Below, one piece after another: positions 12,211-52,184 of a DNA stretch of 64,000 nucleotides. The DNA lies in NCBI GenBank assembly GCA_044220875.1, contig JBGAQH010000007.1, positions 31,673 through 95,672 of the forward strand, given 5' to 3'. The notes below the pieces were generated by a model. It had not been told where the DNA came from, did not search any database, and saw nothing but the letters and a program-made list of their open reading frames with translations. Position 1 is the first letter of the stretch. Each line of letters begins with the position of its first letter. A program made the translations under genes and the position numbers. Origin of the DNA: Phycisphaerales bacterium (GTDB lineage: Bacteria > Planctomycetota > Phycisphaerae > Phycisphaerales > SM1A02).

Positions 12211-13019
12211 GTGCCGATCCCCAATGAGGCGAAGTCCGCGCTGTCGTAGACCTCCTCGACGTAGGCGAACGCGGGCTGCAGCACGATCCGGTTGGCGTCG
12301 ACGGCTGGTTCGTAGAGGACCCAGAGGTACTCCCAGCCGTGCTTCGCGATCCCGGTGATCGAGCCGACGGCGAGTCCCGTCGCGTTGTCGCTCGTCGCGA
12401 AGGAGAAGGTCACCTCCCAGACGTCGTCGCTCGCCCGCTTGCCGCCGCGCGCGCCGAGAAACAGCACCTCGCCGGCGGCGTGCCCGCGGAACGAGGCGTC
12501 GTTGACCTTGCCGGTCAGCGTCCGCAGGAGCCGCCGGTAGGACGCGGTCACGAACGCGTCGGAGAGGTAGTGCGTCTCCGAGAACCGCGCCTCGGGGACG
12601 AGGATGTCGCAGCCGTCGACGCCGTCCGGGGTGACGCCGATCGCGCCCTCGAAGTCGGGCATCGTCGGCGTCCCCGCCGGCGCGTAGCCGCCGACGGTGC
12701 CCTTCGACTGCGTGATGTGGCTCGTGGTCGTCCCGATCTCGAACGAGAAGCTGCTCTCGCCGACCTCGGGCGGCGGAGGGTCCTCGGTCGCTCGGTACGT
12801 CGAGGTCACTTCCCACAGCCCGCTCGACACGTCGATCGGCTCGACGCGGATCCGCCGGTTGCCGAGGCCGTCGTAGCTGGTCGGCAGCTGGATCTGGGCC
12901 TCGGTGCGGACCTCGATGTCGTCGTCGCCGGCGACGGCGAGATAGCGCAGCTCACGGCTCCCGCCCGTTCCGGTCTCGTGCGTTCGGCTGCTGGCAAGCT
13001 CGTGGAAGACGACGGTCAC
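12207..13019 (-). CDS. phage distal tail protein (putative)
   Basis: Immediately downstream of the tape measure gene (10-nt gap). No motif recognised; called by position. Confidence 0.55.
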   Translation of the reverse strand: MTVVFHELASSRTHETGTGGSRELRYLAVAGDDDIEVRTEAQIQLPTSYDGLGNRRIRVEPIDVSSGLWEVTSTYRATEDPPPPEVGESSFSFEIGTTTSHITQSKGTVGGYAPAGTPTMPDFEGAIGVTPDGVDGCDILVPEARFSETHYLSDAFVTASYRRLLRTLTGKVNDASFRGHAAGEVLFLGARGGKRASDDVWEVTFSFATSDNATGLAVGSITGIAKHGWEYLWVLYEPAVDANRIVLQPAFAYVEEVYDSADFASLGIGT

Positions 13020-13028
13020 GGTGGAAGC

Positions 13029-15014: not shown

Positions 15015-15079
15015 GAGGCGTAGCCCCCAGCGTAGACAGGCAACTGCGTGAGGCGAGGGAGCGGTAGGATCCGACGGCT

Positions 15080-15655
15080 ATGGCGACCAATCTGGTTCTG
15101 TATGGCCCGTTTCCTGTTCCGTACTCTGTTGTCGCGGGAACGAAGAGCATCGCCCCAGCGGACGCCCGGGCGTTTTGGGGGCAGGCGGCGCTCTTGCCCC
15201 TGGCCACGAAGAATGGCTGCTACGTGTTCGCACTGAAGGCGAGCCAAGGCTACTTGCCCTGGTATGTGGGCATTACCGGGAAGAAGAAGTCCAAGAAGCG
15301 ACCAAAGCGGGCAAAGGCGGCCAGCTCGCCAATCGGGCGATGGGGGCTGAAGCACGAGACGTTCACGCCAGACAAGCTCAAGAAGTTCAACCGCGCAATG
15401 TCGCTCCGAAAGACAGGTGCACCAGTAATGTTCTTGGTCGCCCCCGCTGGGAGCATTCGGAAGATCCCAACCGCTGAGCTCCTGCACATGGAGAAGGAGC
15501 TCATTCAGAATGCACTCGCGCGAAATCCGGCATTGATAAACACCCAACACACCAAGAATCTCCCTCGATGGTGCATCAAGGGAGTTATCCGTGGCGGAAA
15601 GGGCCGTCCGAACAGCGGCGAAACGGCGTTCAGAAAGCTCCTCGGGTTGGCCTGA
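15080..15655 (+). CDS. GIY-YIG-like nuclease domain protein (opposite strand insertion)
   Basis: NGCYVFAL…LPWYVGITGKK resembles GIY…YIG. Downstream ELLHMEKELIQNALARNPALIN resembles the E..LI……N helix. Visibly lower G+C than flanks. It is the only plus-strand gene in the tail module. Confidence 0.45.
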   Translation: MATNLVLYGPFPVPYSVVAGTKSIAPADARAFWGQAALLPLATKNGCYVFALKASQGYLPWYVGITGKKKSKKRPKRAKAASSPIGRWGLKHETFTPDKLKKFNRAMSLRKTGAPVMFLVAPAGSIRKIPTAELLHMEKELIQNALARNPALINTQHTKNLPRWCIKGVIRGGKGRPNSGETAFRKLLGLA

Positions 15656-15670
15656 TGCGCGGGAGATAGT

Positions 15671-16171
15671 TCACCTCTTGGAAACCGAGTTCCGCAGTTG
15701 CTCGGGAAGCTTCGACTGTTCTCGCTCAAGCGCCGGCCGCATGTAGGGCCGCGCCGCGATCTGGACCGTCTTCGTCTCCCGCTTGCCCTTCGCGTATCGC
15801 GTGACCTTCGCCGTGCCGCCGAACTCGAGCGTCGACGGGGCACCGCTCCCGCCGTTCAGCTTCGCCGGTCCGACGACGACGCTCTTCGCCGACGGGTCGA
15901 ACGCGAAGAAGAGGTTGTCGCGCAGGAGCCCGGTGTGCGACATCGGCGGTTCGCCGGGCTTGCTCTGCCGGACGACCATCTTCCGCGGCTCGCCCTTCTT
16001 CGTGCGGCCCTTGGCAAACACCTTGGCGTCCTTGATCGACTTCTGTGCCGAGCGCATGAGGATCGCGCCGCCGCGTGACAGGGCCTTCCGCGTGGCCGCG
16101 TCGACACGCTCGATCACGAACGCGCGGTCGAAGAACAGGTTCTTCGCGCGGCTGACAGACATCTGGAGCAT
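15671..16171 (-). CDS. HK97 gp10-family head-tail/tail-completion protein
   Basis: …PGEPPMSHTGLLRDNLFF… and …AARPYMRPALE… are typical of the HK97 gp10 family. 2-nt gap from the upstream gene. Confidence 0.65.
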   Translation of the reverse strand: MLQMSVSRAKNLFFDRAFVIERVDAATRKALSRGGAILMRSAQKSIKDAKVFAKGRTKKGEPRKMVVRQSKPGEPPMSHTGLLRDNLFFAFDPSAKSVVVGPAKLNGGSGAPSTLEFGGTAKVTRYAKGKRETKTVQIAARPYMRPALEREQSKLPEQLRNSVSKR

Positions 16172-16173
16172 CG

Positions 16174-17046
16174 CTACGCCTCCGCCTTCGCAAGTGCGTA
16201 CTCGCGGCGGGCGACCTCGTCTCCGGCGATCGCTGCCTTGGCCTGCTTCCGCACGCTCTCGTCGGCCGCGATCTTGTCGATGCCGAAGCGCTCGGTCACG
16301 GCGATGACGCGTCGCGCGCCGTCGCGCTGCTCGACCGCCTCGTCGCGTTCGTCCTCCAGGTCCTTGTGCCTCCGCCGGTTCCGCACCGCGACCAGCGTGC
16401 CGATCGATCCGCCGCCGAGGATGGCGGCCAACCCCGTCTCGAGGATGCCCGACACCTGCGACGCGACCGCACCGGCGCCCGGAACGCCGAGGCCGCTCAG
16501 TTGGCCGCCGAGCGCCTTGACGCCCTCGGCGGTCCGCGTGATCGCGACACCCGTGGCCTCCGCGAATCCGTCGAGGGTCGCCTCGTGCTCTGCGAGCTCG
16601 CGACGGGCCTTGGCGGCAGCGACCTCGAGCTTGATCGCCTCCTCGTCGTAGTCGGCCAGCAGCCGAGCGATCGCGGCGGACTCGTTGGTGAGGCCCTCAA
16701 GCTGCGCGTCGACCTCGCGGATCGACGCCAAGAGGATCGGGCGAGCCTCGCTCGGCGCGGTCGCCAGCTTCCCGGCAAGCTCGGACTGCATGCGCTCGAG
16801 CACCTCTCGGCGCTGGCCGATCCGGTCTTCGGATGCCTTCACGTTCGCCGCCTCGCGCTCCGCCTGGGCGCGGCGCTCGTCGAGCGTCTCGACGTCCTCC
16901 TCGGCCTGCTTCAGCTTGGCTGCAGTGTCCCGCACCTCGGTCGAGGTGGGCGCACCGACCATCGTCGCGACGCCGTCGCGGATCGTCTCGCAGCCGGGGA
17001 AGAGAAGCAGGGCAAGCAGGAAGGTCGCGATCGTGATGAGCCGCAT
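16174..17046 (-). CDS. lipoprotein-signal / coiled-coil / C-proximal TM protein (spanin-like or exclusion protein candidate)
   Basis: N-terminus MRLITIATFLLALLLFPGC (lipobox-like). Long E/A/R-rich heptad region. Hydrophobic GILETGLAAILGGGSIGTLVAV followed by RNRRRHK. GGAGG Shine-Dalgarno sequence 5 nt upstream. Confidence 0.6.
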   Translation of the reverse strand: MRLITIATFLLALLLFPGCETIRDGVATMVGAPTSTEVRDTAAKLKQAEEDVETLDERRAQAEREAANVKASEDRIGQRREVLERMQSELAGKLATAPSEARPILLASIREVDAQLEGLTNESAAIARLLADYDEEAIKLEVAAAKARRELAEHEATLDGFAEATGVAITRTAEGVKALGGQLSGLGVPGAGAVASQVSGILETGLAAILGGGSIGTLVAVRNRRRHKDLEDERDEAVEQRDGARRVIAVTERFGIDKIAADESVRKQAKAAIAGDEVARREYALAKAEA

Positions 17047-29130: not shown

Positions 29131-30477
29131 TCAGGCCTCGGCCAGCGCCGGGGCCTTCTCTGCGGCGGGGTCGTCCGCGCCGATGCGGGACGCCTTCGTC
29201 CCGGTGAACTCCTCGAAGCGCCGGACGATGACGTCGCAATAGAGCGGGTCGAGCTCCATGAGGAACGCCTTCCGCCCCGTCTGCTCGGCGGCGATGAGCG
29301 TCGAGCCCGAGCCGCCGAAGAGGTCGAGGATGTTCTCGCCGGGCCGCGACGAGTACTGCATGGCCCGCACCGCGAGCTCGACGGGCTTCTCGGTGAGGTG
29401 GACCATCGACTGCGGGTTCACCTTCTTGACGTGCCAGAGGTCTGTGGCGTTGTTCGGTCCGAGGAAGAGATGCGCCGCGCCCTCGCGCCAGCCGTAGAAG
29501 GCGATCTCGAAGGCGCCCATGAAGTCCTTGCGGGTCAACACCGGATGCTGCTTGTCCCACACGATGCCCTGGCTGAAGTAGAGCGCGTGCTTCTTGAGGT
29601 AGGGCGGATAGTTGCCGAGGTTCGCGTAGCCGCCCCAGATGTAGAACCCGCGGCCGGGCTCGAGCACGCGGGCCATGTTGCCGAACCACGCGTCGAGCAG
29701 CCCATCGAACGCCTCGTCGGTCACGAAGTCGTTGGCGAGCGGGCGGTCCTTCGCGCGAAGCTGCCTGTGTGTCGCCTTCGACTTCTCGGGGTGCCGCGCG
29801 ACATCCATCGACTGATGGTGGGTTGGTTTCGCGGCGCTGAACGACGAGAGGCCGGCGGCGATCGCGTTGTTCGATCGCGGCTCGACCTTCACGTTGTAGG
29901 GCGGGTCGGTGTTGACGAGGTGGATCCGTTCGCTGCCTAGGAGGCGATCAACATCCGCAGGTGACGAGCTGTCGCCGCAGAGGAGGCGATGGTTCCCGAG
30001 GAGCCAGAGGTCGCCCGGTCGCGTCGTGGCCTCGTCCGGCGGTGCGGGGATCGAGTCGGGATCGGTGAGCCCGTCCTTCACGTCGCCGGCGAAGATCTTG
30101 GCGAGCTCGTCCTCGTCGAAGCCGAGCGAGGCGAGGTCGATGTCGAGTTCACGAAGCGCCGCCAGCTCGATCGGCAGGAGGTCCATGTCCCACTCCGCAA
30201 GCTCGGCGGTCTTGTTGTCGGCGATGCGGTAGGCGCGGACCTGCTCGGGCGTGAGATCCTTCGCGACGTGCACCGGCACCTTCGCGAGTCCGAGCTTCTG
30301 TGCCGCCTTGAAGCGGGTGTGCCCGCAGACGATCACGCCGTCGGCATCGACGACGATCGGCTGCCGGAAGCCGTACTCGCGGATCGAGTGGGCCACGGCG
30401 TCAACCGCGTCGTCGTTGATGCGAGGGTTGTGCTCGTAGAGGCGGATGTCGGAGATAGGACGGATGTCGATCTTCAT
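29131..30477 (-). CDS. ParB-like nuclease domain - DNA N6-adenine methyltransferase fusion
   Basis: N-terminal ParB box (NPRINDDAVDAVAHSIREYGFRQPIVV…CGHTRFKAA), then VNTDPPYNV (motif IV) and ILDLFGGSGSTLIAAEQ (motif I). Confidence 0.85.
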   Translation of the reverse strand: MKIDIRPISDIRLYEHNPRINDDAVDAVAHSIREYGFRQPIVVDADGVIVCGHTRFKAAQKLGLAKVPVHVAKDLTPEQVRAYRIADNKTAELAEWDMDLLPIELAALRELDIDLASLGFDEDELAKIFAGDVKDGLTDPDSIPAPPDEATTRPGDLWLLGNHRLLCGDSSSPADVDRLLGSERIHLVNTDPPYNVKVEPRSNNAIAAGLSSFSAAKPTHHQSMDVARHPEKSKATHRQLRAKDRPLANDFVTDEAFDGLLDAWFGNMARVLEPGRGFYIWGGYANLGNYPPYLKKHALYFSQGIVWDKQHPVLTRKDFMGAFEIAFYGWREGAAHLFLGPNNATDLWHVKKVNPQSMVHLTEKPVELAVRAMQYSSRPGENILDLFGGSGSTLIAAEQTGRKAFLMELDPLYCDVIVRRFEEFTGTKASRIGADDPAAEKAPALAEA

Positions 30478-38347: not shown

Positions 38348-38376
38348 ATAAAAAGGGCGGGCCAAGTGGCCCGCCC
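38348..38376 (-). terminator. Rho-independent terminator
   Basis: On the minus strand: gggcgggcc-actt-ggcccgccc followed by TTTTTAT. Lies 30 nt after the stop at 38406. Confidence 0.8.
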
Positions 38377-38405
38377 GAGCGTTGCAAAGTGCTTTGCGAC
38401 AGCGA

Positions 38406-39365
38406 CTAGCGACGCTGCGCCAATTTTGTCGCCCTGTCGCGTGGCTGCGACGCGACAGTCCGTGCGACGGAGTCGGAGTCCGTCATGCGTCGTAAAGCGT
38501 CCGGCCCGCCGGCTGCCTTCACTGCGCGTTCGACGGCCCACCGGTCTGTGGCGAAGCCCGATTGGTTCAGTGCGTTGGCCGCCGCGCGGTACGAACCGTG
38601 CGTGACGTATGCCTGCACGAGGGCGTCGGCGGTTGCCATGGAGTCGACGGCCTGCTTGACTCGTCGACGGAATCGACTCGCCTCGGCTCCGCTCCCGGTG
38701 CCCTCTGCGTCAGTCGCATGGTCGAGGGCCTCGACCAGCGAACGGAGGGACATCGACTCGATCGCGAGCGATGCTCCCGTCCATGCCATGAGGTCCTCGA
38801 GTGGCACGCAGACCGGCACACGACCCGGCCATGGCACGTCGCCGGGCGGACTCCGTTCGACGAGGAGGATCTGCCGGCCGCTCCGGCCCGCACGTTGCGC
38901 GACCAGAGGTCCGTCGGGCGCCGTCAGTCCGAGCGCGAGCGCCACCTGTCGCATTCCGGTGCCCCACGCCAGCGAGCCGAGGGTCCAGTACCGACCGGGG
39001 AGGGCCTCGCGGAAGGGCGGAAGCAAGCCAAGTGCATCCGCGACCAGTTTCGCGAACGCCGCCCGGTCAAACCGCATCCGGGTCAGGGCGAGGTCGTCGA
39101 CTTCGAACCACCCGGCCTCCGGGCAAATGATCCATGATCGCGAGCTTGCCTCGACGTCTGCCTTGACCTGCGTGCGACGGTGGAGGAGATGAGATCCGCC
39201 GCACGAAGAGCATGGGATCGTTTCGGCAGGGCCCGTGTCGGTCACGATGCCGCGCTCCTGAAGCCACGCCAAGAATGCAGGCTCCCACTCGTCCAGCTCC
39301 TCGGTGCCGAACCGGAGGGCAGGGTCCGCCAGCGCGCACAGGATTGGGTCGATAGGGTCACGCAT
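38406..39365 (-). CDS. hypothetical protein, possible C-terminal HTH
   Basis: 319 aa. 8-nt overlap with the upstream gene. N-terminal CSSCGGSH. The C-terminal segment YVTHGSYRAAANALNQSGFATDRWAVERAVK looks HTH-like. Confidence 0.55.
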   Translation of the reverse strand: MRDPIDPILCALADPALRFGTEELDEWEPAFLAWLQERGIVTDTGPAETIPCSSCGGSHLLHRRTQVKADVEASSRSWIICPEAGWFEVDDLALTRMRFDRAAFAKLVADALGLLPPFREALPGRYWTLGSLAWGTGMRQVALALGLTAPDGPLVAQRAGRSGRQILLVERSPPGDVPWPGRVPVCVPLEDLMAWTGASLAIESMSLRSLVEALDHATDAEGTGSGAEASRFRRRVKQAVDSMATADALVQAYVTHGSYRAAANALNQSGFATDRWAVERAVKAAGGPDALRRMTDSDSVARTVASQPRDRATKLAQRR

Positions 39366-40539
39366 CGGTCACCCCCCACAGCCGGAGACATCGCTCGCCG
39401 ATGATCCGCCGCTCGTCGCGGGCGCCCTTGAGGTCGCACGAATTGGGCCCGCCGACGCCGAAGGTGAACGTCTTCGGGGTCTTGCCTGCCTCGGGAAGAA
39501 ACGTGAGCCTGAACCTGGCCCCGTGGAGCCGCAGCGAACGGAGCGGAGTCTCGACGGGATTCAGGCGCTTGCGGAGCGTTTCGTCGAGGCTCTCGCCTGC
39601 CGGGACATTGAGGATGATGTCCTCATCGCCGTTCGTGCCGAGGGGACGCAGCCGCACCGAAGTAATCTCGACGGTCGCGACGCGGTCGTCGGTCGCGGTG
39701 CGGAGGTTGCGCTCAGGCCAGAGCAGGTGGTCGAGCCGATAGGTTCGGCGCTTCCGCTCGAACCGGACGGCCTTCATCTCAAGGACGGTCTCGCAGAAGA
39801 TCCGCTGAAGCGCCTCGTAGACCGGCTGGCCTCCCTGGGCGTACATCGAGAGTGTGCCGTCGGCCGGACAGTGCACGAACACGACCTCGAAGGTTCGCCA
39901 CTCCTCGCCGCGGCGCTCCTTGCCGTCGGGTCCGAAGACCAGTGGGGCATCGGGGTAGTCGGCGAGCCGGACGAAGAAGTATTGCGCCCCCCCGGCGCGC
40001 TCGTGGGCGTGCACGCAGAAGTGCCTGCCGCGGAGTTCCTTGTTCTGAAAGAACGCCGCGACCCGCATGGCGAGCGCGTCCCGAAGCTCGGGCGTCGCGT
40101 CGATCGGCTTCTTGGGAAGGCTGTTGGTGGTAACCCAGTACCGGCCCGTCGACTTCATGTCGGCGTCGGCGACAAGGCGGGCCAGCTGGAAGGCCTGCGG
40201 GGCATTGACGAGCGTCCACATCGCTCGCTCGGCCCGGCCGGTCATCGCCTCGAACTCGCCAGCCCGCTCGGGCAACTGGCGCTGGATCTCTTCCGCGAGC
40301 GATCGAGTGCCGAAGCCCGTCTCGTCGGAGAGGTCGTGGATGTCGTGGAGCGCGACCTGGATCGCCTTGCCTCGGCCCTCGGGGAGCTGCGCGATGGCCT
40401 CGATGACGGGGTCGACGTCATGCTCGCCGAGCGAGTCCCAGTCGATGCCTTCGAGTCCGCCGTGGCTGTCGAAGAACAGCTTGAGGAGGGTGTTGGGGAT
40501 TTGCTTGAGGAGCCGTCGGGGGTCGTACTGGATCGTCAT
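39358..40539 (-). CDS. hypothetical protein (no recognisable domain)
   Basis: 393 aa. Co-directional, 86 nt downstream of the ImmA-like gene. Confidence 0.6.
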   Translation of the reverse strand: MTIQYDPRRLLKQIPNTLLKLFFDSHGGLEGIDWDSLGEHDVDPVIEAIAQLPEGRGKAIQVALHDIHDLSDETGFGTRSLAEEIQRQLPERAGEFEAMTGRAERAMWTLVNAPQAFQLARLVADADMKSTGRYWVTTNSLPKKPIDATPELRDALAMRVAAFFQNKELRGRHFCVHAHERAGGAQYFFVRLADYPDAPLVFGPDGKERRGEEWRTFEVVFVHCPADGTLSMYAQGGQPVYEALQRIFCETVLEMKAVRFERKRRTYRLDHLLWPERNLRTATDDRVATVEITSVRLRPLGTNGDEDIILNVPAGESLDETLRKRLNPVETPLRSLRLHGARFRLTFLPEAGKTPKTFTFGVGGPNSCDLKGARDERRIIGERCLRLWGVTDA

Positions 40540-40625
40540 GGCTGATTCACTCGCTTTCTGGCGGCGTGCCCCGCCTGTCTATGCGCAGTGAATGGTAAAC
40601 GTCCTGAGAACACATCCGCGTCCCG

Positions 40626-41339
40626 TCAGGTTGTGAACAGGTTCTGCTCCCTCTCCCGGACAAGCAGCCTGACGGCCGCCAACCGATGCCGGAGGGCTTC
40701 GGCTGAGACCTCGAGCCGGTCGGCCAGCGGGCGGCAGAGCCGGTCGATGGCCACCGCCTCGTCGCGCCGACGGTCGCCGGTGCGAGCGGGGGCTACGAGA
40801 TCCTGGATCACGAGGGGCTCGTCGCTCCCTCGCCACGCGACAAAGGCGCCTCTGAGGATTCGGCGGGGCATGAGCAGCATTGCAGCGAACTTGTTCGCCT
40901 GGACTTCCTCCGCCGCGGTGGCCCCGGCCCGGCAGATCACCGCGGGCGGTGGGTACGCCTCGTCAAGCGTCCGCTGCGAGGGGTCGGGCCGCAGGTGCTG
41001 CCGGTGGAGACGCCAGTGGCCGACCTCATGCGCGAGCGTGAACCGGAACCGCCCGAGCATGGCGCGGTTCAACGCGGGATCAAGCGAGCGGTCGATGCGG
41101 ATCGTGCGATCCTCAAACCAGATCGCACCGAGCACGTCCCGGTGCCCGAGCATCGCTCCGAGATCGCCCATCTCGACGGTGAGGCCAAGGTGGATCTCCG
41201 CGAGGTCCTCGATCGGGACTGGCGCGGCGACCTCGACTCCCTTCGACTTCTCCCATTCCGCGAGAAGAAGATCGGCCTCAGCCGCGATTGCCTCGTCGGC
41301 CAGGAATGGCACTCGATCCTTCCCGCGCGGGGCTCTCAC
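40626..41339 (-). CDS. ImmA/IrrE-family zinc metallopeptidase
   Basis: HEXXH motif in FTLAHEVGHWRLH. ATGA overlap with the upstream XRE gene. Confidence 0.8.
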   Translation of the reverse strand: MRAPRGKDRVPFLADEAIAAEADLLLAEWEKSKGVEVAAPVPIEDLAEIHLGLTVEMGDLGAMLGHRDVLGAIWFEDRTIRIDRSLDPALNRAMLGRFRFTLAHEVGHWRLHRQHLRPDPSQRTLDEAYPPPAVICRAGATAAEEVQANKFAAMLLMPRRILRGAFVAWRGSDEPLVIQDLVAPARTGDRRRDEAVAIDRLCRPLADRLEVSAEALRHRLAAVRLLVREREQNLFTT

Positions 41340-41740
41340 GATCCGCGTCCCTTCGCGCGCTTCAGCCGCTCCGCCTCCTCGACGAGCCGTTTGAGGTCTG
41401 CGGCGGTGAGTCCGCCAGCGGCCCTGAGCAGAGCAGGCATCGACGCGGGCTTCCGCTTGATGATGTCGGACAGGTCCTGTGGGACGCGTCCCGCGAGTGT
41501 GATCAGTCCGTCGGGGTCCTGCTCGAGGACCTCCGCCATCTTCCGCAGTCGCTCAAGCGTCGGCGGGCTCTCCACCTTCCCCTGCTCGACGAGGGAAATG
41601 TAGGTCGGGCTCAGATCCAGCATCTCAGCGAACTTCCTGAGGCTGTAGCCTTTGGCGACCCTCATCTCGCGGAGGGCCGCCCCGAAGGGTTGTTTGGATT
41701 GGCCCATTAGGTCCTCGGGTCGGTCGGCAACGTCGAGCAT
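41336..41740 (-). CDS. XRE-family HTH transcriptional regulator
   Basis: LREMRVAKGYSLRKFAEMLDLSPTYISLVEQGK. Alternative start at MGQSKQ. Confidence 0.8.
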   Translation of the reverse strand: MLDVADRPEDLMGQSKQPFGAALREMRVAKGYSLRKFAEMLDLSPTYISLVEQGKVESPPTLERLRKMAEVLEQDPDGLITLAGRVPQDLSDIIKRKPASMPALLRAAGGLTAADLKRLVEEAERLKRAKGRGS

Positions 41741-41922
41741 TCACTGTACCATTGACATACTTGCGAGGCCAACGGGAATTCGCTCCGGCTCTCGAACGGG
41801 GGCGTGACGATGGGGCCCTGGTTGAATCGATCTGGCCGGCACTGCGAGCCCGAGGCGAGTTCCTCGGAGCTGGTCGCTTCTGGACCGTGACTACGGCTGA
41901 CGAGTACAAAGGAGAGTAGCGC

Positions 41923-43665
41923 ATGCCGGGCGAAGCAAAGGATGCCGTGCGACGAGAAGTCGTCTCTGCGCTGAACACTGTTGCCCGGCGCCATGGGCTT
42001 GAAGTCGCCGAGAGTGGCAAGACGGCCCGGATGCGCGAGCTCGACGCTGCCGCGGGCTATTGGGCGGAGCCCACCACGGTGACTGCCAAGCCGCCTCGGT
42101 GGATCATCCAGTTGGCTGCTCATAGAGGTGACTGGATCGCCAGTGTGCCGAACTTGCCCGGGTCACGGCGCACCGCCTACTTCAACACTGCGAATCGGTA
42201 CGTCGGCGTCGGCTGCTTTCGCATAGCCCTCGCGGTGAAGTGGGACGACGTTCCAAGCTTCGCGTTTCCGTCCGATTGGGATTGGCTTCTATGGTTCGCG
42301 TTTAGTCCCGCACTGCGGAACGGTAGCAGTGGTCAGTTGTTGGATGACTTCGATCCATCGACCGGCATTCTCACCTATATGGGGCAACGCCAGCCGTATG
42401 TAGCAGCGGGGCTCGTCTGCCTTTCCCCGCCCACCGAGGAGTTTGCAATTGCTGGTCGCACCCTCACATACGGGCAGGCCACCGAGGCAATTCAGGGCCT
42501 CATTCATGTGGCTCCTCAAGTGTCGGTCGGTGGCGCTGCTCCGGCCGTGATGCCCATGGCTTCGATCGATGTCTTCGATGCGACCAACACCGCCTCTCGG
42601 CTTCTCTTGACGGAGAAGCTGGACGCTGCGTTCCGCGACGCGAAGACTTCCACGGCGGACGCGGAGGGCGACGGACTCGGAGGCGGAGCTCGCATTCCCG
42701 AGTTTCCGGGGCTCATCGGGTTGCCGCCATCTATCTCTCGGCAGATCGAGGCAGCGCTCAACTCGGGCAAGCGGCATCTGATGCTCTACGGCCCGCCCGG
42801 CACGGGCAAGACCACGCTCGCGCAACTTGTCGCTGGGTGCCTCGCAGATCAGTGGAAGTTGATCACCGCCTCCGCGGACTGGACTTCCCAAGACATCATC
42901 GGAGGCTACATGCCTCTGGAGGGAGGGAGGCTCAGGTTCTTGCCCGGAATTCTCCTTTCGAACTTCGACAGGCCGCTCATCATTGACGAGCTGAATCGCT
43001 GCGACATCGACAAGGTGATCGGGCCGCTGTTCACCGTGCTCAGTGGACACCCGACGACCCTTCCCTACCTAACCGAGCCCGGGAACCCGGAGTCGCCGAG
43101 ATACACGATTCTGCCGGAATCCAAGCCGGATCGCTCGCCTCACGAGTTCGCGCCGTCGCGCGACTGGCGGCTGATCGCGACGATCAACACTGTTGACAAG
43201 TCGTCGCTGTACCAGATGTCGTACGCCCTCTCCCGTCGGTTCGCATGGATCTTCGTGGATGTGCCAGCTTCCACATCCGGCTTCCTACTGGAGTGGCTGA
43301 GGTCAAAGGGCATGATCCCGGCGGATGGTGACTTGCCCACCTCAATCCCACTCGGGCAAGTCTGGGCCGCAGTCAACGCGATTCGGCCGCTTGGCCCCGC
43401 TCCCGCGATCGATTCAGTCATGTACATGAGGTCGGCAGCAGGAGACGAGACCGTGGATCAGTTGGCGCCGATCACCGGTGCCGAAGACGCTCGCGTGGAG
43501 ATGATCGTAGATGCTCTGGTTGTGTTCTTCCTTCCTCTCCTCGACGGCATTAGTCGGCAGGAAGGGGAGACGCTTGTGAGCGACGTTCGGGCCGCGCTTT
43601 CGCTCGCCCCTGAGCATGCGCTCGCGGATCGTCTTCGGCGATCCGTGCTCGCGATTTGCATATGA
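41923..43665 (+). CDS. McrB-like AAA+ (GTPase-type) protein with unknown N-terminal domain
   Basis: Walker A LMLYGPPGTGKT. McrB-type Walker B LIIDELNRCDIDKVIGPLFTVL. Also ATINTVDKS…ALSRRFAWIFV. The N-terminal ~270 aa are unassigned. GGAGAG Shine-Dalgarno sequence. Confidence 0.75.
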   Translation: MPGEAKDAVRREVVSALNTVARRHGLEVAESGKTARMRELDAAAGYWAEPTTVTAKPPRWIIQLAAHRGDWIASVPNLPGSRRTAYFNTANRYVGVGCFRIALAVKWDDVPSFAFPSDWDWLLWFAFSPALRNGSSGQLLDDFDPSTGILTYMGQRQPYVAAGLVCLSPPTEEFAIAGRTLTYGQATEAIQGLIHVAPQVSVGGAAPAVMPMASIDVFDATNTASRLLLTEKLDAAFRDAKTSTADAEGDGLGGGARIPEFPGLIGLPPSISRQIEAALNSGKRHLMLYGPPGTGKTTLAQLVAGCLADQWKLITASADWTSQDIIGGYMPLEGGRLRFLPGILLSNFDRPLIIDELNRCDIDKVIGPLFTVLSGHPTTLPYLTEPGNPESPRYTILPESKPDRSPHEFAPSRDWRLIATINTVDKSSLYQMSYALSRRFAWIFVDVPASTSGFLLEWLRSKGMIPADGDLPTSIPLGQVWAAVNAIRPLGPAPAIDSVMYMRSAAGDETVDQLAPITGAEDARVEMIVDALVVFFLPLLDGISRQEGETLVSDVRAALSLAPEHALADRLRRSVLAICI

Positions 43666-44912
43666 GCGACCTCTCGCCAATCATTGATGGGGCGATCATT
43701 CGCGTGCTTCTCCGGTACTTCAGAAGAGGCTCGCGAGTCGTCCTGCCACCTGGAGTCCGGACCGCGCGAGAGGACGCGGGACTGGTGATGATGCACTGGG
43801 CGATGTCGGCCGAGGTAGAACGGCTGGCGACGCGTCTTGCAATGAGTCCACACGAGGCCGATCTGGTGCTCGCTCAAGAGCGATCCGAATCTGATGGAAT
43901 CGCGCGAGGACGAATCGACGCGCGCAGCACGCTGTTAGTCCAGTTGCGGAGCGGTGATCATGGCCGCACAGTGTCCTTCGCGCCATCTAGGCATGCCGAT
44001 CATGGCGCCAACCGATTGATCGTCTGGGTCTTGAAGCGAGCGTCACAGTTGCTCGATCAAATCGAGGGGTTGATGGAGGACGGTAGCCCTTATCTCGAGC
44101 GGTGTACTGCCATTCGCTCGTCGGTCGCGAGAGCATCGCGGTTCTCGCGGGTGTCCGAACTCTTTCGGACGCTCCGTCTCTCCGACCGGCCTTGTGCGGG
44201 TGACGTGCGGCATGCAGCTACGCATCGAAAAGGCACCTACCGGCTCGGCGCCGCAGCATACTTGCGGCTAACCGCGATCGAGCGGGGAGACGAGTCCGCA
44301 GTAGCTGCGACGCTCCACGATTCTGTCATCGCGCCACTGGAGCCCTGGCGACGATTCGAGCTTCTCACCGCCTTGGCAGTGGCGGAGGAACTCTCGCGCG
44401 CCAGTACCGAGCCTCTGACACTGGAGATCCTGGGTTCCGGCGGTGCTTTAAGGCCGCTCGCCCGCTGTCGACCATATGAGGTCTTCTGGCAAGCTCGCAC
44501 CTCGTACTACACCGAACCTGGGCCGGAGCCGTCTGAACAAATCGCGGCGGGCATCTGTGAGGACTTCGGAATCTCTTGTGGAGCAGACCGACCGGATGTC
44601 GTGGTGGTCGACGCAGTGGCCAGGCGCGTAGTGGCGATCGCGGAGGCCAAGTTCATCGGCGGAACGGCGGGCTACGAGTCTGGCCCGTTTACGGACGCCG
44701 TGCTCCAACTTGTTAGGTATGCGCGAGGCTACGATCCGGGCGTTCTTGCACGGTCAGTGATCGCGATGTCGAGGCTCCCTGCGCAGGTCTGCGTCGGAAG
44801 TCCAAGTGGTCGGTCACCGTTCGCGATCGATCTCGCCGGGTTGCTCAGTGGCGAGCTGGCTAGATGGAATCCGTCGGTTCGTTCCCTCATCGACCTCCCC
44901 GATGCAACGTGA
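43656..44912 (+). CDS. McrC-like PD-(D/E)xK nuclease partner
   Basis: 10-nt overlap with the McrB-like gene. C-terminal DRPDVVVVDAVARRVVAIAEAKF fits the PD…ExK pattern. Confidence 0.6.
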   Translation: MHMSDLSPIIDGAIIRVLLRYFRRGSRVVLPPGVRTAREDAGLVMMHWAMSAEVERLATRLAMSPHEADLVLAQERSESDGIARGRIDARSTLLVQLRSGDHGRTVSFAPSRHADHGANRLIVWVLKRASQLLDQIEGLMEDGSPYLERCTAIRSSVARASRFSRVSELFRTLRLSDRPCAGDVRHAATHRKGTYRLGAAAYLRLTAIERGDESAVAATLHDSVIAPLEPWRRFELLTALAVAEELSRASTEPLTLEILGSGGALRPLARCRPYEVFWQARTSYYTEPGPEPSEQIAAGICEDFGISCGADRPDVVVVDAVARRVVAIAEAKFIGGTAGYESGPFTDAVLQLVRYARGYDPGVLARSVIAMSRLPAQVCVGSPSGRSPFAIDLAGLLSGELARWNPSVRSLIDLPDAT

Positions 44913-45056
44913 TGCCATGTAGTGGAGGCGCAGCGTTGCCGACCCAGTGAGGCCGGAGCATCGCCGCGGCCAGGGGCACATCCTCACGAGTGGTATGCGG
45001 CACCCCCGCGAGATCGCCCCGGGCGTGCCGCCTCCGACCATGTCCGCAACGCCGTC

Positions 45057-46289
45057 TCAGCGTGCTATCGCTAAGTCTGAATCACGAGGCGCTGACTTCC
45101 GCGACGCAGAACCGCGCTTACCCGACTCGCCTGTGCCCAGACGAGCTGGCTCGGCTCCGTCCACCAACGAGCACGGCGCGGAGATCTGGTACGAGCCCTG
45201 AGCGGGCGTTGATGGCCGTGGCTCTCGCAGGAACCTCGACTGCCCGCCCTTCAGGAAGTTCGCGTCAAGCTCACAGCAAATCCACTTGCGGTTCAACCTG
45301 TCGCAGACCTCACCAGTGACGCACGATCCTGCAAACGGATCGAGCACCACATCGCCTTCATCCGTGAGCATTCTCACGAAGTACTCGGGGAGGAGCGAAG
45401 GGAATCGTGCCGGGTGGATCGGGAGCTCGTGCTCCCGGCAATATGCCTGATAGTGGCTATTCGATTCCGTGTTTGCGATGGCGAGTAGGTTTGGCGGAAC
45501 CGAACCGCCGTTGTGGCGCTGGAACTTTGTAGAGATGTCGTGTCCCGACGGTCGCAGCGCGGCCTTGTATCCGTTCTTTAGAAGATGTTCCATCGCTGGC
45601 GAGTAGGGTGCGAGCACTCGGCGGTTGTCAGCCTTCGGCCACGGACTCGGCGACAGCCACCAGACGCAATTGACCGCGTCCTTCACGCGAATTCTTCGGA
45701 TGTTCACCCACTCTGCAGGCGTTGGAAGTTTCGATGGACTCCACCAGTAGTGCTCCTGACAGAGATGGAATCCAAACTCTCTGCATAGGCTGATGAGCAA
45801 CTCGAAGTGGTAGAGCGACCGCGTCGGGGTGCCGGGCTTCCACGCACCGCCGATGTCGATCACGAGGCTCCCTTGCTCCTTGAGCACGCGGTGGAATCCC
45901 GCCGCGAATGGCCTGAACCAGTCGACGTACTGGTCTGCGTCCTCGTTGCCGTATGACTTCTTCCGCACCAGTCCGAAGGGCGGTGATGTGACGATCAGGT
46001 CTACCGAGCGCGGAGCGAGCGTCTTCAGGAGCAGACCACGCGAGTCGCCGTGGTAGATCGTGCCGCGACGAACTCGCGCAAAGACCTTCGGCTCGTCAAC
46101 CTCGCAGGCTCCGGGCGCCCGCGTCGCAGCGTGTTCCGCCAGGTGGCGCCGGTGGAGGGACCGAACATACTCGCTGATGGTCGGAAACCCTGCCTCCTCG
46201 GCGGCCTTCTGCATCGCGGCGTGTTCGGGTTCTGTCAGGCGGACGTTCGCGGTCGCTGACCGGGGAGTGGCTGCTCTGGGCCTAGGCAT
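45057..46289 (-). CDS. DNA methyltransferase (SPPF motif, N4-cytosine-like) with N-terminal ribbon-helix-helix domain
   Basis: N-terminus RLTEPEHAAMQKAAEEAGFPTISEYVRSL (RHH-like). Motif IV DLIVTSPPFGL. Motif I VVLDPFAGSCVTGEV. Confidence 0.8.
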   Translation of the reverse strand: MPRPRAATPRSATANVRLTEPEHAAMQKAAEEAGFPTISEYVRSLHRRHLAEHAATRAPGACEVDEPKVFARVRRGTIYHGDSRGLLLKTLAPRSVDLIVTSPPFGLVRKKSYGNEDADQYVDWFRPFAAGFHRVLKEQGSLVIDIGGAWKPGTPTRSLYHFELLISLCREFGFHLCQEHYWWSPSKLPTPAEWVNIRRIRVKDAVNCVWWLSPSPWPKADNRRVLAPYSPAMEHLLKNGYKAALRPSGHDISTKFQRHNGGSVPPNLLAIANTESNSHYQAYCREHELPIHPARFPSLLPEYFVRMLTDEGDVVLDPFAGSCVTGEVCDRLNRKWICCELDANFLKGGQSRFLREPRPSTPAQGSYQISAPCSLVDGAEPARLGTGESGKRGSASRKSAPRDSDLAIAR

Positions 46290-46332: not shown

Positions 46333-46806
46333 CTAGTGGGTTCTTGTGTGACAAGAACGCTCCGACGGAATATCGCGTCGAAGCCGCGCCCACTTGAGTC
46401 GCTGCCCCGCCCAGCGTCTCTCTTGCACCACCTGTCGTAGGTCGCGCTCGCTCAACTGGCCGCGGCCGCATGGCAGGCCGGGGAGCAGGAGGATCTCCTC
46501 CTGAATGTCTGGCGCGAGGTGCAGCAGGTTCATGATCTGTGTCATCCGTGGCTGGGTCACGCGAGCGAGCTTGGCGAGCTCCGACTGGTTCGCGACGACG
46601 CCTTCCCGAAGCAACTCATCGAATCGGATCGCCAACGCCATCAGCCGAGCAACGCGCGGGACGCGGCCGTCGTTGGCGTCCGCGACGACTCTTGAACTGC
46701 CGGATGGCTCGGGCGGGTATGAGCCCGGGCCGGCGGCCGTGGCCACGACGGCCCGCTTGCGGCGGTCCCTCGTCGTGAACCGGATCGATCGGGTGACGGT
46801 CGTCAT
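46333..46806 (-). CDS. HTH protein of the recombinase module
   Basis: …NQSELAKLARVTQPRMTQIMNLLHLAPDIQEEIL… 4-nt overlap with the recombinase stop. Confidence 0.6.
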   Translation of the reverse strand: MTTVTRSIRFTTRDRRKRAVVATAAGPGSYPPEPSGSSRVVADANDGRVPRVARLMALAIRFDELLREGVVANQSELAKLARVTQPRMTQIMNLLHLAPDIQEEILLLPGLPCGRGQLSERDLRQVVQERRWAGQRLKWARLRRDIPSERSCHTRTH

Positions 46807-48386
46807 GCGGCTTCCTCCAGTCGTAGTGCGATCAACGCTCCGATGCTCGTCGGGCGGAACGTCACGGCCACGGTCCCGGCGGTCGCGTCGTACTCGACGG
46901 TCGAAATGAGAAGGCGAAGCAGTCGTGCCTGCTCGCGTGGGATCAGGTTCTGCCAGAGCGCGTCGAAGTCGGCGAACGCGACTTCGGCCTCAGCCCGAGT
47001 GATCGTGTCTCGCCCGATGTCGGCGAGTCGGGCCTCGACTTGGGGCAGGCGGCGCTCGGCGTCCGCGACTCGCTCATGGAGGTTGGCGATAGCGGCCGCC
47101 GTGGCTGCGGTGGGTGGGGCAGTGATCTGCGCCCGCAGTTCTCGGTGATGCTGCGCGACGGCAGATCGGAGCGAGACATGTTCAGCGGTCAGCGCCTTTC
47201 GGTCTGCCTCAAGCGTGGCTTGCGTCTCCGCGAGAATCTGCGCGACCAAGGTCCGGTCGCGGGCGAGCGCTCGCACCTCGTCGACGACCAGTCGCTCGAT
47301 CTCGGCCGCGGGAACGGTGCCCGATGGGCAGACGTCGGCTCCGCTCTTGATCGCCTTCACGCACCGGTAGTAGCGGTACGAGCGGCTCTTCCGTCCGCCC
47401 GCGAACGTGTGCGTCATCGAGTGATCGCAGCACTTGCACCGGAGCAGGCCGCGAAGGAGGGCGCCGTACTTGTTGCGGACCTCGGCACCGCCGGTGCGGC
47501 CGTTGGTCTTGAGGAGGGCCTGGACTCGCTCGAATATCTCACGGTCGATGATCGCGGCGTGCTCGCCGTCGTAGATCGCGTCTCGATGGACGATCTTCCC
47601 GATGTAGATCGGATTGGTCAGCGTCTGGTGGAGCGAGCTCTTGTCGAAGGCCTTCCCGCCGAGAGCCTTGCCCTTCTTCGTGACGCGGCTCTTGTTGGAC
47701 CATTGCCGCCGCGCGAGCTCGCTCACGACTGGCAGGAGCGAGCCCTTCTCGAGGTAGAGCGAGAAGATCTGTCGGACACGTGCCGCCTCGGCTTCGTTGA
47801 TGACCAGATGCGGGCTCGGTCCCGACCGGTCGACGTCGTAGCCCAAGACGGGGACGCCACCAGCCCACTTCCCCTTGCGCTTCTGCGCCGCGATCTTGTC
47901 GCGGATGCGCTCGCCGATGATCTCGCGCTCGAACTGGGCGAAGGAGAGCAGGATGTTCAGCGTGAGCCGTCCCATCGAGCTCGTCGTGTTGAACTGCTGG
48001 GTGACCGAGACGAACGACACGCCCTTGCGGTCGAACGCCTCCATAATCCGGGCGAAGTCCATGAGCGAGCGGCTGAGGCGGTCGACCTTGTAGACGACGA
48101 CGCAGTCGACCTTGCCCGTCTCGATGTCGCGGAGCAGACGGTCGAGCGCCGGCCGCTCCATGCTTCCGCCGGAGAACCCGCCGTCGTCGTAGCGATCGGC
48201 GACGCAGGTCCACCCCTCGGCCTTCTGGCTGGCGATGAACGCCTCGGCGCTCTCTCGCTGAGCATCCAGCGAGTTGAACTCTTGATCGAGGCCCTCGTCG
48301 CTCGACTTGCGGGTGTAGATGGCGCAGCGGATCGATCGCTTCACGTCGACCGCCACCGGCGAACCGGTTCGTCGGCGCCCGCTCAT
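46803..48386 (-). CDS. large serine recombinase
   Basis: IRCAIYTRKSSDEGLDQEFNSLDAQRE carries the catalytic Ser motif. Resolvase core …VVVYKVDRLSRS… and zinc-ribbon region CKCCDHSM…YYRC. The ATG at 48386 overlaps the DUF2924 stop (ATGA). Confidence 0.85.
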   Translation of the reverse strand: MSGRRRTGSPVAVDVKRSIRCAIYTRKSSDEGLDQEFNSLDAQRESAEAFIASQKAEGWTCVADRYDDGGFSGGSMERPALDRLLRDIETGKVDCVVVYKVDRLSRSLMDFARIMEAFDRKGVSFVSVTQQFNTTSSMGRLTLNILLSFAQFEREIIGERIRDKIAAQKRKGKWAGGVPVLGYDVDRSGPSPHLVINEAEAARVRQIFSLYLEKGSLLPVVSELARRQWSNKSRVTKKGKALGGKAFDKSSLHQTLTNPIYIGKIVHRDAIYDGEHAAIIDREIFERVQALLKTNGRTGGAEVRNKYGALLRGLLRCKCCDHSMTHTFAGGRKSRSYRYYRCVKAIKSGADVCPSGTVPAAEIERLVVDEVRALARDRTLVAQILAETQATLEADRKALTAEHVSLRSAVAQHHRELRAQITAPPTAATAAAIANLHERVADAERRLPQVEARLADIGRDTITRAEAEVAFADFDALWQNLIPREQARLLRLLISTVEYDATAGTVAVTFRPTSIGALIALRLEEAA

Positions 48387-48889
48387 CGCTCGCCCTCGAG
48401 GCGGAAGAACCGGAACCCGTTCAGGTGGCTCCCGGTCACCTTCTTGGCGACGGCGGTGAGCGTGCGGAAGCGTTCGCCGTTCCATTCGAAGCCCTCGTCC
48501 TTGGGCAGGACCAGCACGCGAATCGTGCGGCCCTTGTACTCGCGGACGATTGCAGAGCCCGCGGGCGGCAGGCGTCGATCATCGTGGTCGTCGCCGTGGA
48601 CGCGGCGGCGAACGGTCTTCGCGGTGCCCGACTGCGGCGGGCTGACCAGCGTCTTCGGGGCCATGACCCGCACCTCGGCGTCGTCGGCCAGTTCGGCGGC
48701 CCGACGTCGTGCCCGTTCGCTGAGGTCGCCCTCGGCGTTGGCCTGAATGCGCCAAGCGATCTTCCGGATGAGGTACTGCCGGTGGCGGGTGCGGCATGGG
48801 TAGCCGTGGACCTCGGCGAAGCGCTCGACGAGCTCCGTCGTGGTCATGCGCTCGAGCGCGTTGATCTGGTCTTCGATGGACTCCGGCAT
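48383..48889 (-). CDS. DUF2924-family protein
   Basis: …TTELVERFAEVHGYPCRTRHRQYLIRKIAWRIQA… and …EYKGRTIRVLVLPKDEGFEWNGERFRTLTAVAKKVTGSHLNGFRFF…. Confidence 0.7.
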   Translation of the reverse strand: MPESIEDQINALERMTTTELVERFAEVHGYPCRTRHRQYLIRKIAWRIQANAEGDLSERARRRAAELADDAEVRVMAPKTLVSPPQSGTAKTVRRRVHGDDHDDRRLPPAGSAIVREYKGRTIRVLVLPKDEGFEWNGERFRTLTAVAKKVTGSHLNGFRFFRLEGER

Positions 48890-50185: not shown

Positions 50186-51775
50186 CTACCGCTTCCAGCG
50201 ATCCTCCCAAACACCGAGATGCATCGGCATGATCACGTGGCCGTCAGGTCTCGCCTTCTCGCGGGCCTGCTCCTCTTGGCGAACTCCGAGGGAAAGGTAG
50301 ATCAGCGCTGCGCGGGCGAGCTTCATTACGCGGAGAGTTGCAGCCATGAACGCGTCTCGGCGCAGCGAGAAGGCAAGCGTGTCGCGGAGCGGGTCGGGTG
50401 TCGTGGACGCGTCGCTTCCCGACCAGAAGTCATCATGCAGCTTGAGGTACTTGTGCTCAAGGTGATTTCGTAGCTCGGCGAGGCCTCGCGCATCGGGATC
50501 CATGACATCGCGGAAGTCTGGCCTGTCCTCAAAGAGATCCTTGCTCAGCCAATGAAGCCCCCGCCAGGGCCAGTTGTCCCGGGCCGCGAAATCCGATCGA
50601 ATCCCTTTGCCGCGCTCCTGAGCGGTGTACCACAGCGTACGGAATGAAACTCGCTTCTCAGGGATTCCGAGCCTCGCGTAGGCGTTCATGAAGTACGCGA
50701 TTTTGTCGAACAGCGAGTATGCGGCGCGATAGGCCAGCTTGGCCTGCTCGACTGCCAGCGAATAGGCTGGGTAGTCGAGCGTGTTGTAGAGCAGCACCCC
50801 CGCGTCGGAGAAGTGCGTGCTCTCGCGTGATGCGGCTTCGAAGTAGATCCATCGCGCCGAGCAGTACTCCTGCTTCAGCTGGTTGAAGAAGCCGGGCAGG
50901 GATGGGCCTTCGTCGAGTCCAGTGACGACCGATGGAGTTGTGAGGACGTCGTGTGCCGCGATCGGTAGCGGTCCAAGGTCGTTCAGGGGATTGAGGAACA
51001 GTCCCTCGCGAAGGCACCATGCCCGGTACTCGACTTCTGACGGTGACGAACCAAGCGAGAAACTCTCGACGTCCATCCCGTCGCGCAGAAAGTCTGGGGG
51101 CAGCCAGCCACCAATCCGTTCCCGAAGCGGAGCGAACATTGCTCGGGCGCCTGGATCGATGTCAACCTCAAGTGCCGCAGTCAGATCGCAATGTGCAGCG
51201 CGGAGAAGCAAGGCGACGTGCCCGTCGTCGTAGAGGGAGCGCGCATACGAGTCCAAGCACACCCCTCGATTGCCCTGTGCATGTCCGAAGGCGGCATCGA
51301 TCCGAAGGGCTTTGTTGAATAGTTCAATTGCCTCGACAAACCTCCCCACGAAGCTGAGGGCATTCCCCGCGTTCGTGAGAATCTGGCACCGCCGGATGAT
51401 GGGCAACGTGGCGAATCCCGGTCCGCGCATGGCCGCGCGGAGGTGGAACACTTCACGCTCGACCTCAAGGCGCTCCCAAAGCCAGGTCTCCGGCGTGCCG
51501 TGGGTTGCGTACCGGCCAGCGACTGCCCACGCGTTGCCACGGTAGTAGTTGAGCAGGCACTGCTGTTGTGACTCAAGAGCGGTGACGTCGAGAGTCGAGG
51601 CGAGAGCGTCGGCATGTCGGGCTGCGGCGACATCTCCAGCGTCGCCGGCCGCGTCGACGATCATCGCCAAGAGTTCGAGCGAGACCTCTGGCGGTCGATC
51701 TGAGAGGCTCGTCCATGAGCGCGCCGTTGCGTTGATCTCGCGAGGGTCGGCCAGTTCCTCAGGTTCGTTCGCCAT
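50186..51775 (-). CDS. TPR-repeat protein with C-terminal HEPN domain (Rx4H)
   Basis: TPR-like segments (…NALSFVGRFVEAIELFNKALRIDAAFGHAQGNRG…). HEPN motif in LAELRNHLEHKYLKLHD. Confidence 0.7.
   Translation of the reverse strand: MANEPEELADPREINATARSWTSLSDRPPEVSLELLAMIVDAAGDAGDVAAARHADALASTLDVTALESQQQCLLNYYRGNAWAVAGRYATHGTPETWLWERLEVEREVFHLRAAMRGPGFATLPIIRRCQILTNAGNALSFVGRFVEAIELFNKALRIDAAFGHAQGNRGVCLDSYARSLYDDGHVALLLRAAHCDLTAALEVDIDPGARAMFAPLRERIGGWLPPDFLRDGMDVESFSLGSSPSEVEYRAWCLREGLFLNPLNDLGPLPIAAHDVLTTPSVVTGLDEGPSLPGFFNQLKQEYCSARWIYFEAASRESTHFSDAGVLLYNTLDYPAYSLAVEQAKLAYRAAYSLFDKIAYFMNAYARLGIPEKRVSFRTLWYTAQERGKGIRSDFAARDNWPWRGLHWLSKDLFEDRPDFRDVMDPDARGLAELRNHLEHKYLKLHDDFWSGSDASTTPDPLRDTLAFSLRRDAFMAATLRVMKLARAALIYLSLGVRQEEQAREKARPDGHVIMPMHLGVWEDRWKR

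Positions 51776-52110: not shown

Positions 52111-52184
<74 letters not shown>

Follow-up and report, generated by a model that had tools for sequence, protein, structure and literature searches.

The closest described counterpart of the locus reported here is the restriction–modification (R-M) system LlaJI, of which BsuMI is a relative. LlaJI, from Lactococcus lactis pNP40, consists of two 5-methylcytosine (m5C) methyltransferases, M1.LlaJI and M2.LlaJI, together with the subunits R1.LlaJI and R2.LlaJI (PMC1459862). R1.LlaJI joins a unique N-terminal specificity half to a McrB-like GTPase half, and R2.LlaJI carries a PD..D/ExK motif (PMC1459862). The system restricts unmethylated DNA, needs both R subunits to do so and has been described as Type II behaviour on Type IV hardware (PMC1459862). 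In a census of McrBC systems (CoCoNuTs), Bell and colleagues found McrB clades beside predicted DNA methyltransferases, an association which they called 'surprising' for Type IV systems and considered to be probably ancestral (10.1101/2023.07.31.551357; PMC11090510); the description of these methyltransferase-associated clades was left to a later publication (10.1101/2023.07.31.551357). Here, we describe a prophage-borne locus in a stretch of 64,000 nucleotides (nt) from contig JBGAQH010000007.1 (assembly GCA_044220875.1, positions 31,673–95,672, forward strand). This whole stretch is referred to as the window and its own numbering is used throughout. In our view, positions 41923–46289 are likely to hold an autonomous three-gene R-M cassette of the LlaJI type (McrBC-like) which would attack unmethylated DNA and which is prophage cargo, situated close to the recombinase end. 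This reading is drawn from sequence comparison and from analogy with characterized enzymes. The three genes are as follows.

41923–43665, plus strand: R1 (P0001), McrB-type AAA+ motor and predicted specificity subunit, 580 residues (motifs, profile and structure model)
43662–44912, plus strand: R2 (P0002), McrC-like nuclease subunit, 416 residues from the ATG (PD-ExK core, model and ATGA overlap)
45057–46289, minus strand: M, DNA methyltransferase with an N-terminal ribbon–helix–helix (RHH) domain, 410 residues (Pfam, PADLOC, motifs and conserved linkage)

An earlier note on the window, made from the sequence alone, had picked out R1 and R2 as an McrBC-like pair and had taken them for a modification-dependent nuclease under infection- or damage-inducible control. 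The methyltransferase gene was overlooked there, and its presence changes the reading of the pair.

Linkage of the methyltransferase to R1 and R2

M is convergent with R2 and lies 144 nt past its end. The protein matches Pfam N6_N4_Mtase (E = 8e-37) and PADLOC MTase_II (E = 1e-108), with a NikA-like RHH segment at residues 9–45; motifs IV and I read TSPPF and DPFAGSCVTG, respectively. Across the 11 homologues aligned, TSPPFGLVRKK and DPFxGSCVTG are invariant and the RHH segment is conserved.

The comparison covered loci encoding relatives of R2, 38 from genomes, two from plasmids and 12 from IMG/VR, and linkage was counted in those with at least 1.3 kb downstream of the R2 homologue (n = 46). 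A convergent M orthologue follows R2 in 43 of the 46, and in 43 of 43 where R2 is intact; in the remaining three (L031/L059 and L062) the R2 homologue is truncated. The median gap between the R2 and M alignments is about 100 nt across the linked loci, and median identities to the window proteins are 60% for M, 40% for R1 and 35% for R2. These loci come from Alphaproteobacteria, Dehalococcoidia, Rhodothermales, Pseudomonadales and Woeseiaceae, and are found on chromosomes, plasmids, proviruses and IMG/VR contigs. M is also kept where the R genes have decayed or are absent (L060), where R1 is split by about 2.4 kb (L018) and where R2 lies in two frames (L038), while none of the loci compared has intact R1 and R2 without M. 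This pattern of decay, in which M outlasts the R genes and R1 and R2 are never left alone, fits an R-M system. With M beside the pair in every one of the 43 loci whose R2 is intact, an arrangement also found in LlaJI, we read the pair as part of an R-M system that would spare methylated self DNA, and the modification-dependent nuclease proposed earlier gives way to an R-M arrangement.

The G+C content of the R1, R2 and M genes taken together is 62.2%, lower than the prophage value of 68%. Neither 40 related genomes nor a collection of sequenced phages yielded a copy of the cassette. RefSeq labels the homologous plasmid genes 'AAA family ATPase', 'hypothetical protein' and 'DNA methyltransferase'.

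The cassette occurs twice in full (L016 and L028) on CATOTI010000001.1, a chromosome-sized contig from an uncultured Pseudomonadales genome; the copies are about 43 kb from each other and have identical match statistics against the window proteins.

The McrB-type subunit R1

The ATG of R1 is preceded by the ribosome-binding site AAAGGAG. In the AlphaFold2 model, which has a mean predicted local distance difference test (pLDDT) score of 88.8, the chain begins with a β-rich N-terminal domain (up to about residue 222), continues as a long linker helix (residues 223–249) and ends in an AAA+ module (residues about 270–580). The AAA+ module matches Pfam AAA_5 (E = 3e-19). The open reading frame (ORF) contains the three motifs from which the earlier note had recognized an McrB-type protein, GPPGTGKT (residues 290–297), IIDELNR (residues 353–359) and ALSRRF, and the first two are invariant among 51 homologues. 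A profile built from these 51 sequences aligns with E. coli McrB across the whole AAA+ module (hhalign probability 98.3, E = 1.7e-14), placing NTVDKS on the McrB signature NTADRS and SRRF on RRRF. The R1 signature reads I-N422-T-V-D425-K-S, in which N422 and D425 are invariant among the homologues, as are R438, R439 and F440 of the RRF motif (sensor II and arginine finger). In all McrB homologues the sequence MNxxDRS replaces sensor I (PMC7680126). Searching with phmmer gave a match between R1 and PDB entry 6hz4 across residues 282–454 (E = 3e-7). A Foldseek search of the Protein Data Bank (PDB) with the R1 model returned E. coli McrB (6ut6_D, E = 1e-9) as the top match, with NorQ and CbbQ of the MoxR class close behind. 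The AAA+ half of R1 is McrB-type, beyond plain AAA_5, and by analogy with McrB the nucleoside triphosphate (NTP) on which it depends is probably GTP.

More than 1,200 homologues of R1 were found. In certain relatives the two parts of R1, N-terminal domain and AAA+ module, align separately or seem to lie in ORFs of their own (R1 regions of L052, L056 and L034; P0013, P0014 and P0042), and proteins of about 367–376 residues with the AAA module alone and of about 200–235 residues with the N-terminal domain alone also occur. Split variants of R1 are suggested by these sequences.

The nuclease partner R2

The R2 reading frame is open from a TTG at 43656, which gives the 418 residues of the earlier note and a 10-nt overlap with R1. 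A start at the in-frame ATG, position 43662, would overlap the R1 stop codon as ATGA and give 416 residues, the same length as a 96%-identical homologue. On these sequence features the ATG is the likelier start, and R2 is predicted to be translationally coupled to R1.

R2 carries the sequence RPDVVVVD...IAEAKF, and in its family (n = 45) R312-P313-D314, E330, K332, Q351, Y355 and R357 are invariant. The C-terminal PD…EAK core that had been seen in the overlapping partner is therefore conserved as an invariant RPD...ExK in all 45 homologues. The AlphaFold2 model of R2 has a mean pLDDT of 86, and Foldseek retrieves restriction nucleases with it: BstEII is first (E = 7e-4) and E. coli McrC (6ut6_G) second (E = 6e-3), followed by BsoBI, MunI and SgrAI. 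The nuclease fold on which the earlier reading of the second protein depended is thus recovered in the model. The N-terminal half is modelled as helical, with a β-hairpin bearing the invariant R84-G85-R86-x-D88, and a McrC-type finger domain is no more than suggested. R2 has no match in Pfam (including McrC, DUF2357 and RE_LlaJI), NCBIfam or PADLOC, and comparison with PDB sequences, both of R2 alone and of the 45-sequence profile, returned nothing. We regard a PD-(D/E)xK nuclease core in R2 as established at the level of conserved sequence and predicted structure.

The N-terminal domain of R1

The earlier note recognized nothing in the first ~270 residues of R1, and our searches of Pfam, NCBIfam, the PADLOC families and PDB sequences with residues 1–270 were likewise empty. 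A profile of the N-terminal domain built from 17 sequences gave no significant match in the PDB or Pfam and none to the N-terminal domain of EcoKMcrB (DUF3578). The comparison with known readers of modified bases that the earlier note had in mind thus yields, at the level of sequence, no Pfam reader family, no PDB sequence and no relation to DUF3578. When the whole R1 model was compared with the PDB and BFVD using Foldseek, the 50 matches listed were solely to AAA+ proteins.

An exhaustive phmmer search with residues 1–222 retrieved 109 representative proteins, which fall into four groups: AAA_5 fusions of about 570–585 residues; many proteins of about 200–235 residues; proteins of about 460–500 residues in which the domain is C-terminal; and proteins of about 400–420 residues in which it is N-terminal, at least two of which end in a C-terminal Mrr_cat nuclease domain. 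At L049:1071–2826 a 397-residue fusion of the N-terminal domain with Mrr_cat is followed by a convergent methyltransferase fragment which is 55% identical to M. The linkage of this fusion type to a methyltransferase rests on that one contig, which was the sole one readable among those with a fusion; scans of metagenome and viral contigs gave no further fusions of the domain with Mrr, and a homologue search with the fusion protein retrieved itself alone. As judged from this single contig, one recognition domain and one methyltransferase family would be paired with two unrelated cleavage engines, which is the expectation if the N-terminal domain recognizes the site that M protects.

It is possible, and we hold it only tentatively, that the ~220-residue N-terminal module has a DNA-recognition fold not described before, specific for sequence and inhibited by methylation, which travels as one piece with one methyltransferase family and has been plugged into a GTP-driven McrBC-type motor nuclease in this window, and elsewhere into single-chain Mrr-type nucleases and into split or stand-alone forms. 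If this is true, 'Type IV-like' hardware and Type II logic would here have exchanged modules in nature.

In proteins P0172, P0174, P0178, P0183 and P0188 (about 460–500 residues) the domain is C-terminal and stands behind a 270-residue region without a Pfam match, which makes a third architecture.

Proposed mechanism

The starting points for a mechanism are the domains that were identified, their catalytic motifs, and the linkage and orientation that the three genes keep across loci. M, with its fused RHH domain, would mark host and prophage DNA at a specific motif; the product suggested by the SPPF motif is N4-methylcytosine, and expression is probably autoregulated by the RHH domain. R1 would bind the same motif, when unmethylated, by means of its N-terminal domain, and would assemble as an AAA+ ring that hydrolyses NTP, probably GTP. 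R2 would dock on this ring and cut the DNA through its PD-ExK site, with the outcome that incoming unmethylated phage or plasmid DNA would be destroyed.

Several points weigh against this reading. R2 is without sequence-profile similarity to E. coli McrC as well as without a match to Pfam McrC, DUF2357 or RE_LlaJI, and the fold match of its model to McrC (6ut6_G) is weak (probability 0.77, TM about 0.2). The N-terminal domain of R1, which was compared in isolation by sequence only, may have an SRA- or EVE-like modified-base reader fold. The Mrr_cat domain with which it is also found belongs to a nuclease family that is frequent among modification-dependent enzymes, and the fusion beside a methyltransferase is known from a single contig. 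Finally, we infer the direction of methylation sensitivity from gene linkage, together with the decay pattern, and from one characterized analogue.

The XRE/ImmA genes and the divergent spacer

Upstream of R1, on the opposite strand, are the two genes to which the earlier note had assigned control of the pair.

41741–41922, no strand: intergenic spacer of 182 nt from which the XRE gene and R1 diverge, presumably containing both promoters (coordinates)
41336–41740, minus strand: XRE-family helix–turn–helix protein (Pfam HTH_3, E = 3e-13; PADLOC capH, E = 2e-10)
40626–41339, minus strand: ImmA/IrrE-type M78 metallopeptidase, the partner of XRE (Pfam Peptidase_M78, E = 7e-12; PADLOC capP, E = 3.5e-16)

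The geometry that had been described, with R1 and R2 divergent from the XRE/ImmA genes across 182 nt, is exact. A view that accepts the R-M cassette supposes that its R1–R2 operon came under the XRE/ImmA damage-responsive switch by way of this shared promoter region, such that restriction would be low in the lysogen and would rise on DNA damage or prophage induction. Such control is unlikely in our judgement, but it accounts for some of the observations. The arrangement fits the rule for CapH/CapP, which lie 'upstream and on the opposite strand' (10.1101/2022.04.27.489752), and the PADLOC capH and capP matches (2e-10 and 3.5e-16) are in keeping with it. The link is also kept in one relative, L039/L051 (IMG/VR 3300028648, an 85.9-kb contig), in which R1 is 70% identical to that of the window and a 55%-identical XRE gene is divergent from it, even though about 24 kb of adjoining phage genes are missing.

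The TTGACA noticed earlier is present at 41752–41757, but the hexamer is no commoner than chance (eight occurrences in the window against 10.3 expected) and has no −10 partner in a consensus scan. No consensus promoter and no inverted repeat that might serve as an operator were found in 41741–41922, which speaks against this control. Alignment with the spacer of the relative shows scattered identity only. Nor is the spacer visibly AT-richer, as had been stated: its G+C content of 61.5% matches that of the cassette genes and is at the 15th percentile of 182-nt windows.

The XRE and ImmA genes, a gene for a 393-residue phrog_37634 protein and one for a 319-residue protein form a four-gene unit on the minus strand (38355–41740, XRE first), which ends at a strong intrinsic terminator with nine G–C pairs and a T run (38376–38355). 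The 393- and 319-residue proteins may be the actual targets of XRE/ImmA control. At the head of its own strongly terminated operon, the pair has more in common with the ImmR/ImmA modules found in mobile elements, and this too counts against a switch dedicated to R1 and R2.

The association is also not seen elsewhere. Even with a threshold of E ≤ 1, no XRE or M78 homologue was found within 2.5 kb 5' of R1 in the 32 genome loci compared, and when 117 ORFs upstream of the cassette in 39 loci were scanned with Pfam, HTH_3, HTH_31 and Peptidase_M78 were absent from the first 25 of 67 families, those listed. The upstream neighbours of the cassette in other loci are heterogeneous and include recombinases, integrases and housekeeping genes. 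In L039/L051, where the link is kept, ImmA is merely a 120-residue remnant. That contig also shares with the window the cassette, the 157-residue gene that follows it and tail-end phage genes (window 12207–17046), and is without the roughly 24 kb of replication and head genes which lie between the shared parts; by sequence it resembles a version of this phage that has undergone a deletion and retained the R-M cassette. As only L039/L051 keeps the link, we read the adjacency of XRE and cassette as common descent within one phage lineage. Of the proposed CapH/CapP-to-effector arrangement, the capH and capP matches and their position upstream on the opposite strand stand for the window, and its recurrence in distant loci does not. 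Most likely, XRE/ImmA serves the prophage itself as a damage-responsive switch, or else regulates the operon that it heads.

Other interpretations of the R1–R2 pair

A second view would make R1 and R2 a Type IV, modification-dependent McrBC enzyme whose N-terminal domain reads a modified base, with the adjacent M as unrelated phage cargo. The McrB hallmarks of R1 would be expected of such an enzyme, canonical McrBC enzymes being modification-dependent, and the occurrence of the N-terminal domain in fusion with Mrr_cat points the same way; the prophage, moreover, bears another, unrelated methyltransferase (the ParB-fused enzyme at 29131–30477). Against this, coincidental cargo is not credible as an explanation for 43 of 43 loci linked to one orthologous M across phyla and replicon types, and a nuclease directed at DNA that its obligate neighbour has marked would be lethal to the host. 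DUF3578, the Pfam reader families and the PDB sequences, furthermore, show no resemblance to the N-terminal domain. We consider the Type IV assignment to be very improbable.

Least credible of all is a role outside DNA restriction, in which R1 would be a MoxR/NorQ-type chaperone ATPase and its partner no nuclease: the Foldseek scores of NorQ and CbbQ for the AAA+ module nearly equal that of McrB and one source labels some homologues 'MoxR-like ATPase', but on the distinction between McrB and MoxR/dynein-type ATPases that the earlier note had raised R1 sides with McrB, with an invariant NxxD(K)S then RRF instead of the MoxR sensor motifs (profile probability 98.3), and the partner has an invariant PD-ExK core, restriction-enzyme fold matches and no VWA domain, the pair being obligately linked to a DNA methyltransferase.

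The prophage and its integration module

The R-M cassette that we favour for 41923–46289 lies between the phage genes proper and an integration module. Head-protease, portal, terminase, primase, helicase, Sak4 and ParB-methyltransferase genes occupy about 10.2–41.7 kb on the minus strand and the recombinase region extends over 46.8–48.9 kb, which bears out the earlier view that the pair is carried by a prophage.

46333–48889, minus strand: integration module, comprising a 157-residue unknown protein, a large serine recombinase (46803–48485) and a DUF2924 protein (48383–48889) (Pfam)

The serine recombinase matches Pfam Resolvase, Recombinase and Zn_ribbon_recom. Homologues of the 157-residue gene, the serine recombinase and the DUF2924 gene flank M in at least nine genome loci and in six IMG/VR contigs, and the R-M cassette may move between different elements together with the integration module. 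A comparison of the two prophage flanks showed no att-like direct repeats. For the host genome, the prophage would bring a complete R-M barrier and not a damage-induced nuclease for methylated DNA.

Loci in which M is followed by homologues of the integration module are L019, L022–L024, L026, L027, L052–L055 and L058. The ParB-fused phage methyltransferase (29131–30477, minus strand) matches phrog_498 (E = 2e-124), and a stand-alone N6_N4 methyltransferase is encoded at 731–1534 (plus strand) in the low-G+C left flank. A protein with TPR and LA2681-like HEPN domains (Pfam E = 1e-72) is encoded at 50186–51775 (minus strand), between the recombinase module and tRNA-Met (52111–52184, minus strand). 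At 7096–9227 (plus strand) a phosphoribosyltransferase-domain protein and DprA (DNA_processg_A, E = 5e-55) abut the tail end of the prophage.

Comparison with known systems

Annotation pipelines and defence finders file McrBC-type machines as Type IV, so that systems wired to a methyltransferase are misread or missed. The cassette family would offer a tractable three-gene system in which to ask how an McrB motor is coupled to the recognition of unmethylated sites, and would also offer an uncharacterized recognition domain that is common to Mrr-type nucleases.

With CapH/CapP systems the window shares an XRE repressor and an M78 peptidase encoded upstream of a defence operon on the other strand (10.1101/2022.04.27.489752), but the XRE/M78 association is not conserved with the cassette family. 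Heading a four-gene prophage operon, XRE/ImmA is nearer to the ImmR/ImmA pairs of ICEBs1 and phage phi105 than to a dedicated two-gene regulator.

R1 and R2 resemble EcoKMcrBC in Walker motifs A and B, the MNxxDRS-type signature and the RRF motif of the AAA+ module, and in a nuclease partner that is encoded downstream and appears translationally coupled; the hexamer-plus-nuclease architecture is presumed by analogy (PMC7680126). In contrast to R1–R2–M, EcoKMcrBC (E. coli K-12, Type IV) has no cognate methyltransferase and requires methylated DNA. The N-terminal domain of R1 is unrelated to DUF3578, and R2 has no profile match to EcoKMcrC. The methyltransferase-associated clades of the CoCoNuTs census are likewise McrB GTPases with an NxxD signature, encoded beside predicted DNA methyltransferases, and R1 shares this signature and setting; the filter of that census required a match to an McrC 'alias', whereas R2 is without one in Pfam.

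The correspondence with LlaJI is in organization: both combine methyltransferase activity with an McrB-like subunit that has a unique N-terminal half and with a separate PD..D/ExK subunit. The differences lie in the components. Here there is one β-class N6_N4 enzyme, with an SPPF motif and a fused RHH domain, in place of two m5C enzymes, and M is convergent with the R genes, whereas the LlaJI methyltransferases are co-directional. R2 is without a Pfam RE_LlaJI match, and no solved structure is related in sequence to the N-terminal domain of R1. By analogy, the cassette would be LlaJI-like in its working and is not a sequence-level member of LlaJI. As a variant of the McrBC-like kind of R-M system, it belongs to a type that is already known; what appears to be new, as far as can be judged from its sequences, is a widespread and unannotated family with a different class of methyltransferase, an R2 subunit that is unrecognizable by sequence and an uncharacterized recognition domain shared with Mrr-type nucleases.

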